Shown: positions 27,001-30,000 of the stretch, piece after piece
How the letters are laid out: each line of letters starts with the position of its first letter
Position numbering within the stretch: position 1 is the stretch's first letter
Origin: a candidate division WOR-3 bacterium
Lineage (GTDB): Bacteria > Hydrothermota > 32-111
Assembly: GCA_039804105.1 (NCBI GenBank)
Contig: JBDRZU010000001.1
Span: forward strand, 1,088,001 to 1,152,000
Length of the DNA stretch: 64,000 nucleotides
Direction: 5' to 3'
Program-made: the position numbers

Positions 27001-30000
27001 ATTTTTATAAGATTTGACATTTTTTCTCCTTTTATTATTTTAATATTTGAATGTTATAATATTAAAATTAAAAAAATCAAGAGGGGAATTTAAATTCCCC
27101 TCTTATTATTTTATTCTTTATTTTCTTTTAAGATTTTCTTTTGCAACAACTTCAGACCATTTTTTGCCGCCCATGGTCTCAGTGATATAAACTATCATAC
27201 TATAGATGTTGGCAACTGGAACATATGTGAGCCACTCTATTAGTCTTCCTTTTGTTTCCTTCATCATCTGCGCTGTTGTATAACCTCCAACATATCCGAT
27301 GCAACATCCTTCAACTCCAGCATTTTGGAAACCAACAAAAGCATAGTAAACTCTTAAAATTGGAAAGAAAAGTTGTAATAACTGTAAAAGGTCAACATTG
27401 ACTGCTTTTTCGTTAGCAATGTATCCCATCCTTATATCAAAAATTCCAAGAAGACATGGGACTATTCCACCATTCTGTTTTTGAATTGAGAAGACGGGAG
27501 CTGCAAACAATGATGGTGTTAACAATGAGATCAAAAGAAAGATAATAATAATTTTTTTGGTCATTTCTCCTCCTTTATGTTATTTTTATTTTATTAAAAA
27601 ATTTTTTTAAAGTCAAGAGAAAATTTTAAGGATGATTGTCCGCAATTTGATCCAACTATATTTTCTTTCAATTCACCTATTGACACTATGACATCAAAAC
27701 CATTTTTGTTAAGTTGTTTTTTTATATCTTCCATTCTTTTATAAGAATCAACACATAAATTATTTTTTATAGATTGATATGTCGGGTTTACAGGTGTCAA
27801 TTTTATGATAAAAGTTTTTTTATCAAAGTAAAGTGCAATTTTTTCAAAGGAGATTTCGTTTGACTCACTTACAGGAAAATTTAAAACTATCTTTCTTTTT
27901 CCAGGTGAATAAAATTCTTTTCCATATTCATTCAAAAATACAAAATTTTCTTTTTCTATTGGAATCGTTTTATCTCTTTCGTTCGTATTGGTGGAATATA
28001 TAGAAAACTGTAGTTGGAAATCGACAAAATTTTCTCTGATTGATAAAAGTTTTTCAAACCATTTTCTTCGATTTTTCGGAAACACAGTTGATATACACGG
28101 TATACAATTTTTATACTTTTTCTTTAATTCTTTAATCACCTCCAAAACATCATCGTTGAAAGATGGTTCTCCCATCCTTGCGAACTGAACTTTGAATTTC
28201 TTAAATCTGTTTGGACTCAAATTTCTTTCATTTATCATAAAATCTATCTGATACATCATTTCATCAAAAGTTAAATTCCTTGCGAATTCGTATCCGCTAT
28301 CACAAAAAACACACCGAACAGGACAGCCAACTTGTGTTGAAACAATTAGAACCCATTTTTCGTGATTTTTGCCAGAAATAACTGGTTCAACATCAACGGA
28401 TTCTATAAATTTTTTGTCTTCCGTTTCAAAGACGAGAACCTTTGAAACTTTTACCATTTCATTTTTTAACAAAAGATTCATTCTGCCTCCTTTCAGATGA
28501 GAGTTTCATTGCAAGTTTTACTCCATCAGCAAAAGAAATACTCCCCTGCTTGAAATTTTTGCCTTTCACACTACCGCATAAAAGAACTCTTTTACTCTTG
28601 TTTACAATCTGTGGAAGATTTTTTCTTGAACCTATACACAAAAGAATATCATCAAATACTCTCTCAAAGTGTTTGTTTTTACTTTTGAAAAACACTCTGT
28701 ATTTATCAACCTCAGTCTTATTTATGTATAAAATCTGCGAGAAAGGATAAATATCTTTGACAAATGTTTTTACTTCTTCCAAAAGTTTTTTGTTCACTTT
28801 CCTAAAGTTCCCTTTGGAAATAATGGTTAGTTTTTTTCTTTTTTTTGTTAAAGTCAAAGATTGATCGAGTGCAACCTCTCCACCACCTATAACACAAATA
28901 TTTTTCCCTTTAACTTGATCAAAACGATTCTTAAGGTTTAACTCCCGAAATTTTTTTAAAACTTTTTCCTTTCTCCCAGTTGCAATTATACAATATTTCG
29001 TTGAGTATTCGTTTTTTTCAGTTTTTACGATTACAAAACTTTTTCTTACTTCTATTTTTATGCATTTTTCAAACTTTATTTTTCTTTTATATTTTTCCAA
29101 TTGTTTTTCAAAGTGAGAACATAATCTATTCCCTTTAACATCACAAAAACCCGGAAAATTTGTTACTCGGTGAGCATACCAGATATCACCACCTATTCTA
29201 TTCTGTTCAAGGAGTAAAACTTTTTCAAAATCTTTTAATATCTGTAAAAAGAATCCAATTCCAGCACATCCACCACCAATGATTATAAAATCATATTTTT
29301 CCATCAAAAATATCCCTTGAATTTATTATTTTTGCAAAACCTCGTTTCATATTTTCAATAGAATATCTATGGTGTTTTAATTTTCTAGATTTCACAAGAT
29401 CCTCAACTACATAATTTTCAAAACCATTTTCAAACGACTCTCTAACATTACTTTCAACACATAATTCGGTCATTACACCAACAAAAAAGATTTGTTTGAT
29501 TTTCAAAAGTTTTAAAAGTTTTTTAAAACTTTTTTTTTGAAAAACCGAATAGGAATTCTTTCTTACAATATAGTAATTTTTGGGTAAATATATCTTTTCA
29601 TAAAGTTCAAGATCGTTTCCATAAGGTAAATGTTTCCACCATTTGTTAAAATTTATCTTTCTCTTTGACGGAATAAATTGTAAAAAAATTATAGGACTTT
29701 TATTTTCTTCAAATATTTTTATAACTCTATTTATTTTTTGGGCTAAATTTTCTGCTCCCCTGATGTAGGATTTAGAACTTTTTTCAAAAAAATAGTTTTG
29801 AACATCAACTACTAAAAGCAAACTTTTTCTCATAAAATTAAACACCCCCAAAAAAAAGAGCCATCCGGTCTGGATGGCTCTCGCCTGACATAACCTGATT
29901 GGATTATATATTTTTAACAAAAAAAATCAAGATATTTATTGTTGATAATTTATTCTTTTTTGGTAAAATAAAAAATTAGATTTAAAAAGGAGAGTTATGC

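Follow-up and report, generated by a model that had tools for sequence, protein, structure and literature searches.

Guanidine-IV riboswitches are ON switches in which a short two-stem aptamer overlaps a terminator. The Na+-I riboswitch (DUF1646) is presented, in the accessible part of PMC9337991, as an ON switch whose short two-stem aptamer lies over a terminator and which heads genes for cation transport and osmolytes. According to the available part of PMC6478431, the HMP-PP riboswitch (the thiS motif) follows ON logic with a very small aptamer situated mostly within an intrinsic terminator. THF-II (the folE motif) is a simple P1/P2 hairpin in which conserved bases of an internal bulge recognise the reduced pterin ring; it lies before folE in Rhizobiales, its P1 contains the ribosome binding site, and a role as an OFF switch has been proposed for it (PMC6800512, in those sections that were accessible).

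Here we describe an RNA element found in a 64,000-nucleotide stretch of DNA from a candidate division WOR-3 bacterium, the whole of which we refer to as the window. We propose that the element probably belongs to an uncatalogued class of riboswitch, acts on transcription as an ON switch and serves to increase the supply of pABA. As far as the available descriptions go, it resembles the HMP-PP riboswitch in that the substrate of a coupling enzyme would activate the synthesis or import of its partner (HMP-PP and thiazole there, DHPPP and pABA as proposed here), but the hosts and genes are different; no thiamine gene and no gene identifiable as one for thiazole synthesis or import is found among the first genes of 182 pattern loci (among the matches listed) or 29 model loci. 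It shares the folate pathway with THF-I and THF-II, but differs from THF-II, as described, in its terminator ON layout, with the 3' strand of P1 within the terminator, in its association with pABA supply genes and in its anaerobic hosts. The THF-II arrangement, with folE downstream and a ribosome binding site in P1, is not seen, there being no folE among the first genes.

A new riboswitch class seldom comes with a clear hypothesis about its ligand, and the candidate described here is only about 30 nt long. To our knowledge, the source of pABA in anaerobes and archaea that have folP and lack pabABC is an open gap. A precedent for chorismate-independent pABA synthesis in folP-positive genomes without pabABC is CADD, or CT610 (COG5424), as described in the accessible part of PMC4161248. 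The accessible literature yielded no paper on the motif or on the gene cassette found behind it in the window, and the linking of the two under one switch is new here. The main texts of PMC11109978 (in the accessible part of which guanidine-IV is mentioned), PMC8632094, PMC5737381, PMC7266159 and bioRxiv 10.64898/2026.10.21.760802, to the extent available, contain no pABA-related motif, nor does one supplement of PMC8632094; their supplements may list one.

Results

A two-stem RNA element that overlaps a terminator

The features of the locus are collected in Table 1. A preliminary description of this DNA had placed a 46-nt element on the minus strand directly behind a promoter, and its location, the promoter (a TTGATT/TATAAT site in our reading) and the overlap with a terminator are all reproduced here. 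The 5' strand of P1 probably coincides with the start of transcription, at about 29897-29895, and the three-gene operon begins at 29833, 17 nt past the U-tract. There is no second terminator-like site in the 1 kb scanned, where 0.4 would be expected in shuffles.

Table 1. Positions of the element, its promoter and the downstream operon within the window.
Feature	Position	Strand	Description
Candidate riboswitch element	29898-29853	minus	46 nt, two-stem RNA; 3' half is also an intrinsic terminator
Sigma-70-like promoter	29903..29930	minus	-35 TTGATT 29930-29925, 16 nt, -10 TATAAT 29908-29903
P1 5' strand GGUU	29892..29895	minus	pairs with 29870-29867; covariation
Joint J1/2	29886..29891	minus	conserved AUG, then 2 nt of spacer (homologues have 2-4 nt) and a conserved A
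P2 hairpin GGC-GAGA-GCC	29876..29885	minus	loop 3-10 nt in pattern matches; long hairpin in L296
Joint J2/1	29871..29875	minus	AYCC plus A/C; doubles as a piece of the terminator 5' arm
P1 3' strand GACC	29867..29870	minus	inside the 5-nt terminator loop
Intrinsic terminator	29850..29882	minus	11-bp stem 29882-29856, U-tract to 29850
Cysteine hydrolase, isochorismatase family, 180 aa	29291..29833	minus	PF00857, E 1.8e-33; conserved columns
Thioredoxin-reductase-fold flavoprotein, 282 aa	28459..29307	minus	PF07992; without conserved CxxC
RlmN/Cfr-like radical SAM enzyme, 295 aa	27594..28481	minus	CxxxCxxC (53/57/60), RMGEP, invariant Cys280 in SNCGQ

The first 34 nt fold as P1 plus P2 at -8.5 kcal/mol; for the full element the minimum-energy fold is the terminator alone. 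Because the terminator takes up the 3' strands of both stems, that of P1 as its loop and that of P2 in one of its arms, the two folds are mutually exclusive, a point made earlier that also holds on our enlarged set of copies. The aptamer part has a median folding energy of -7.4 kcal/mol and the whole element one of -21 kcal/mol, and as the aptamer fold is weak by comparison, termination should be the default.

Distribution of the family

Strict patterns returned 27 and then at least 111 loci from genome contigs, and at least 120 from metagenomes. To be kept, a locus had to show at least 3 of 4 pairs in P1, 6 of 7 in the terminator and 4 U, a filter failed by 5 of 120 metagenome loci among the matches listed. 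This left, again among the matches listed, 182 loci (106 genomic and 76 new metagenomic) holding 171 distinct elements. Judged by record title, there are carriers among the Desulfobacterota, Bipolaricaulota, Atribacteria, Thermotogae, Dehalococcoidia and Myxococcales. Loose patterns did not discriminate, as one matched all 150 genomes and none of 120 loci returned by another was a member. One strict pattern found no match in viral contigs.

With covariance model R1, a single copy is seen in each of 26 of the 150 genomes of the window's phylum, against 20 of 150 reported earlier with another model, and the earlier figure of 10 of 12 family relatives is confirmed. In this phylum, close relatives at the protein level carry the labels WOR-3 and TA06. 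Its presence outside the phylum is likewise borne out by model R2, built on alignment A3 (104 rows, four antisense self-matches among them), which has matches in 33 of 151 Desulfobacterota genomes. R2 gave four weak matches in 151 genomes of a Ruminococcaceae-labelled neighbourhood, none of them with the AUG/P1 anatomy. A second candidate in G009 (L125) was rejected as it has no terminator, L621 and L622 (E about 5e-4) were judged not to be members, and three weaker R2 matches in the Desulfobacterota that came without a locus were set aside.

The Rfam 15 match that scores best against the window element is Phe_leader, at 27.9 bits versus a gathering threshold of 55 and aligned well over the terminator only; the Na+-I riboswitch gives no match to it at E up to 10. 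Nine other loci likewise yield nothing from Rfam, with the limit set at E 1. The reported absence of an Rfam match holds for the window element and for these nine loci.

Covariation of P1

Among the matches listed, the five P1 pairs are intact, from inside to outside, in 164, 171, 170, 169 and 147 of the 171 copies. Pair 2 is paired in every copy (UA 114, GC 22, UG 21, CG 14) and pair 4 in 169 of 171 (GC 105, AU 58, GU 6), both counts again taken among the matches listed, and in the same set two-sided swaps occur at pairs 2, 4 and 5 and mutual information peaks on the diagonal, at 0.75, 0.68 and 0.86. P1 thus covaries at three pairs. The inner pairs had been described as kept in 45 of 45 sequences, a set without a few copies whose innermost pair is broken; here they are mostly intact, the innermost being broken in 7 of 171 copies (among the matches listed), close relatives of the window included.

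As the filter for keeping loci favoured P1, the comparison was repeated with search patterns that set no P1 requirement: all four inner pairs are present in 145 of 154 distinct matches with a U-tract but in 5 of 27 without one (among the matches listed). Alignment A3 has two-sided changes in 61 cells versus 16 in shuffles, none of 500 shuffles reaching 61, a figure that is inflated by related sequences. P2 is nearly invariant, with two-sided covariation in only 4 cells, and the search patterns and models themselves account for part of the conservation seen in the joints.

A strict sigma-70 site with its -10 ending 6-20 nt before the AUG is found at 36 of 174 loci, 35 of them at 9-13 nt, compared with 1 of 174 in a control stretch. 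Given this fixed distance, the element is probably situated at the 5' end of its transcript. It combines a conserved, covarying structure with an expression platform that excludes the aptamer fold, and as a candidate for a riboswitch class of its own we consider it strong.

Genes under the proposed switch

At the 182 loci, among the matches listed, the first gene encodes an SSF symporter at 122, PabA at 30, a cysteine hydrolase at 12, PabB or a pabB-pabC fusion at 5, a LivK-type protein at 3 and an aromatic-acid MFS transporter at 2; the remaining eight lack a gene, seven having 310 nt or less downstream, plus L165. The 29 model-found Desulfobacterota loci comprise 15 with pabA-pabB, 7 with SSF, 5 with LivK-type genes and 2 non-members. 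The links to pabA-pabB, SSF symporters and an ABC importer given in the preliminary description are reproduced by these counts, but the ABC binding proteins are LivK-type (PF13458) and the SsuA-like protein reported there was not encountered.

The second gene of the pabA operons had been identified as pabB. This is upheld for 7 of 9 proteins, which pass TIGR00553, while two fall below the cut-off of 328.4 bits (326.7, and 313 for a partial protein); none of the nine passes the TrpE cut-off TIGR00564. The third gene has aminodeoxychorismate lyase (PabC) as its best match in 4 of 4 cases, below cut-off. Since PabB passes, TrpE fails and the third gene resembles aminodeoxychorismate lyase, we consider these to be pabA-pabB-pabC rather than trp operons. 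An over-cut-off pabB is present in 14 of the 15 pabA-led Desulfobacterota carriers.

The SSF, LivK-type and MFS importers score below the cut-offs of models with a named substrate, and the best match of the MFS protein is an aromatic acid/H+ symporter model, also below cut-off. In the 151 Desulfobacterota genomes, an over-cut-off pabB is absent from 12 of 13 transporter-led carriers (those of the 12 model-found loci led by SSF or LivK-type genes, plus G150) versus 62 of 138 others (Fisher p 0.001, kin not being independent); the exception is the LivK-led carrier G302, which has pabB. The pABA theme noted earlier is strengthened by the PabC-like third gene, the pabB-pabC fusions, the aromatic-acid MFS transporter and the lack of pabB in transporter-led carriers. 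The element therefore occupies the 5' leaders of non-homologous genes with what appears to be one metabolic theme, which for the transporters and the cassette is deduced. All 26 switch carriers in the window's phylum have folP. Making pABA where the genome is able to do so and importing it where it is not is the pattern to be expected of a pABA-supply regulon.

Proposed mechanism and alternative explanations

The RNA can form either P1 and P2, enclosing an internal loop with the conserved AUG..A and AYCC, or, from the same bases, the far stabler terminator. In the absence of ligand the terminator would prevail and transcription would end, whereas a metabolite bound before the polymerase reaches the 3' arm of the terminator would hold P1/P2 in place and permit read-through. 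DHPPP (6-hydroxymethyl-7,8-dihydropterin pyrophosphate) is the co-substrate of FolP and accumulates when pABA is short. If the element is a riboswitch, we consider it somewhat better than an even bet, reasoning by analogy, that its ligand would be DHPPP or a close pterin precursor, and we see this as the most likely choice. The ligand is probably the other substrate of FolP and not pABA, because pABA should not switch on its own supply; chorismate is ruled out in those carriers that lack AroC. A general folate alarm is disfavoured, since among the matches listed no other folate gene stands first under the switch. Should DHPPP be sensed, the switch would also report sulfonamide action in cells.

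The same switch might respond instead to a different ligand, either ZMP/ZTP under folate stress or another pterin or folate, with the cassette serving a folate bypass or the modification of folate. ZTP riboswitches are ON switches for folate stress, and an RlmN-like methylating enzyme would seem better suited to methylation of a pterin or nucleobase than to ring synthesis. Moreover, THF-II aptamers bind several reduced pterins alike, according to the accessible part of PMC6800512. We nevertheless think a different ligand unlikely, as folE, folK, folP, purH, fhs and glyA are never the first gene at the 182 pattern loci (among the matches listed) or at 27 model loci, the regulon keeping to pABA supply, and as none of the folate or ZTP families in Rfam is matched; in addition, ThyX is present in G000 and four relatives, which therefore need no thymidylate bypass. 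A plain terminator, or a hairpin close to the promoter, that owes its conservation to common descent and senses nothing would fit the observation that the lowest-energy fold of the full element is the terminator only. To this we give next to no credence, because a constitutive terminator between a promoter and its own gene makes no sense, and because in different phyla, and before at least six non-homologous gene families, the sequence upstream of the terminator is kept and shows covariation with the terminator loop.

Regulation by a protein or by the ribosome would need other partners. RAT hairpins are the binding sites of BglG/SacY, and the P1/P2 hairpin could be bound in the same manner by a pABA-sensing regulator that brings about antitermination; the size of about 30 nt and the overlap with a terminator recall RAT elements by their description, and the aptamer fold is weak on its own (see the median energy above). 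Such a regulator is nonetheless improbable, as a CAT RNA-binding domain was found in none of 5 carrier genomes (G000 being 85% complete; the search did not extend to ANTAR, TRAP, HutP, GlpP or PyrR), no upstream gene family is common to more than 10 of 136 loci (among the matches listed), the recurrent downstream genes include no regulator, and the element moves between unrelated genes and phyla without a partner gene. Attenuation mediated by the ribosome supposes that the AUG opens a leader peptide, or that it marks a near-leaderless initiation site whose use follows the supply of formylated initiator tRNA and, through it, of folate. The AUG is invariant, situated a few bases from the likely 5' end and at some loci in frame with the next gene, and the peptide of the commonest form would be Met-Ser-Gly-x-Ser-His-Pro, and the variants first found differed at third codon positions only. 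However, the P2 loop ranges from 3 to 10 nt, with lengths other than 4, 7 and 10 breaking the frame in 58 of 171 copies (among the matches listed), the AUG-to-AGG spacer is 2, 3 or 4 nt, the frame after the AUG extends for anything from fewer than 10 to more than 100 codons, and P1 covaries around the AUG; a Shine-Dalgarno-like word precedes the AUG at 8 of 174 loci compared with 17 in a control stretch. These frame-breaking spacer and loop lengths exclude the leader-peptide version, no conserved frame with a ribosome binding site being found, and the version with frame-independent initiation is unlikely, so that attenuation as a whole strikes us as very improbable.

A riboswitch for pABA supply, if true, would give three transporter families a likely substrate, and the widespread orphan radical SAM cassette its first functional lead. 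It is possible, though doubtful, that what we describe amounts in full to the first riboswitch with the pterin moiety of folate as its signal, together with families of importers for pABA and, in many anaerobic bacteria and archaea, an RlmN-like pABA pathway that is independent of oxygen and chorismate.

The three-gene cassette of the window

The nearest solved relative of the hydrolase is a pyrazinamidase/nicotinamidase (E 6.7e-12), and its Asp10, Lys92 and Cys125 are presumably a triad of the amidase type. The flavoprotein scores 98.9 bits with TIGR01292 against a cut-off of 343, no cysteine is conserved in 64 aligned homologues, and it may act as the electron donor for the radical SAM enzyme. 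The AlphaFold model of the latter (pLDDT 94) has 6fz6 as its best fold match (Z 27.6, rmsd 2.3, 263 aligned), and Cys280 is its only invariant cysteine besides the cluster motif. It thus resembles the RlmN/Cfr class A radical SAM methyltransferases in fold (Z 20.4 with Cfr, 9p0p), in CxxxCxxC and MGEP and in an aligned C-terminal, methyl-carrier cysteine, but it is some 60-100 residues shorter at the N-terminus and scores 58 bits against the family cut-off of 290. Nor does it have both catalytic cysteines: the resolving cysteine of RlmN is located before the cluster motif, where the window enzyme has no invariant cysteine.

A single radical SAM query found no loci of relatives, but an alignment query did, and relatives number 3,048 at E up to 1e-20. 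Among 80 loci of relatives, in bacteria and archaea, the flavoprotein is present at 75 and the hydrolase at 58; in some lineages the hydrolase is absent from the cassette. A copy of the switch stands before the cassette in the class of the window and at L444, L439, L445, L448, L166 and L364, and weakly at L433 and L437, which places the cassette under the switch in at least four lineages besides the window's. Within the window's family, the switch and the radical SAM gene are both absent from the same two of 12 genomes. Family f5 has the switch in 13 of 15 genomes, with SSF behind it at those loci that were read, whereas none of the 15 has the radical SAM gene. Most copies of the cassette lack a switch, as do 37 of the 49 in the phylum; none was seen in 19 cassette regions re-read with R2, and 78 other loci include four clear and two weak cases.

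We put at about evens the proposal that the three genes of the window are a source of pABA that needs no chorismate, either making the compound or freeing it from an amide. In the phylum, folP is present in 49 of 49 cassette carriers versus 80 of 101 others. Across phyla, in raw counts with no lineage baseline, 48 of 50 carriers have folP and none has an over-cut-off pabB; these 50 are the first of 78 loci and include at least two repeats of genomes in the phylum sample. Because it is found in such folP-positive, pabB-negative genomes, the cassette is a candidate for a chorismate-independent source of pABA. The 50 carriers have eight sub-cut-off pabB matches, beside ORFs read by eye as trp or aro genes. 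The combination of folP without pabB is common anyway, as folP is present in 129 of the 150 phylum genomes and 1 of 5 chorismate-binding proteins scanned passes the PabB cut-off. The chorismate-binding proteins of f11 and f24 were dismissed as a counter-example, the three tested passing the TrpE cut-off and the five genomes tested having trpA.

While folP, folK and ThyX are present in G000 (85% complete) and in four relatives, no chorismate-binding enzyme, AroC or CADD was found in these five genomes. CADD is oxygen-dependent, in contrast to the cassette, a radical SAM system that occurs in anaerobes; it is also a protein unrelated to those of the cassette and was found in none of 5 family genomes. 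It is not obvious how methylene transfer of the RlmN type could lead to pABA; speculatively, a one-carbon unit derived from SAM could be carried via Cys280, with electrons from the flavoprotein and the hydrolase cleaving an amide or thioester. As an alternative, the cassette could salvage an amide of pABA. Only one cassette carrier in the phylum, G004, has pabB fused to pabC, and its hydrolase gene is interrupted by a premature stop, a single case that may be an assembly error. Of 99 cassette loci only 1 has folP adjoining the cassette, and in G036 folP is situated immediately downstream of it.

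Motif copies and the genes under the switch

The P2 length of the candidate riboswitch motif is free, as is shown by the copy at locus L296 (genome G052), which bears a P2 lengthened to a long hairpin. At L165, where the copy is perfect, a search of the 1.2 kb 3′ of it found no gene on the same strand. At L345 the gene that comes first under the switch has a frame of 766 codons with kinship to PabB, and it may be a further fusion. The aromatic-acid MFS gene at L190 has a relative at L325 that runs past the contig end.

Coordinates of the features discussed
Feature	Position	Strand	Remarks
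Signal-peptide-like protein	window 21800-22321	(-)	repeated Gln/Asn/Lys/Glu units
Rrf2-family regulator, then hybrid cluster protein gene	window 24950-27020	(-)	downstream of the cassette, on its strand
148-aa protein	window 27118-27564	(-)	directly after radical SAM gene; predicted secreted or membrane
folP	G000:C1:145495-146220		within an open frame of ~394 codons
ThyX	G000:C2:77622-78836		tandem two-domain protein, ~445 codons
Aromatic-acid MFS gene under the switch	L190:2683-3955	(-)	two frames, gene split
Motif copy, long-hairpin P2	L296:1501-1580		
Perfect motif copy and following stretch	L165:4001-5272		

Neighbouring and related genes

The gene for the 148-aa protein is conserved across the genus, immediately 3′ of the radical SAM gene that belongs to the cassette under the switch, and a Pfam and NCBIfam scan of the protein returned zero matches. 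The hybrid cluster protein (hydroxylamine reductase) passes its family cut-off, and three genus relatives keep the gene order seen here. The signal-peptide-like protein has an acidic C-terminal stretch with cysteine.

At the three loci carrying chorismate-binding proteins of families f11 and f24 (L541, L548 and L557), aroA lies upstream of trpE-trpG in all cases and trpA is ~4-6 kb away; in two of the three, trpE-trpG is situated between aroA and hisD.

Because the folP open frame is longer in many genomes of the phylum (~400 codons, as against ~280 in others), an extra N-terminal domain is suggested for these and for folP of G000, the window's own genome. The tandem two-domain ThyX of ~445 codons is present in five family genomes.
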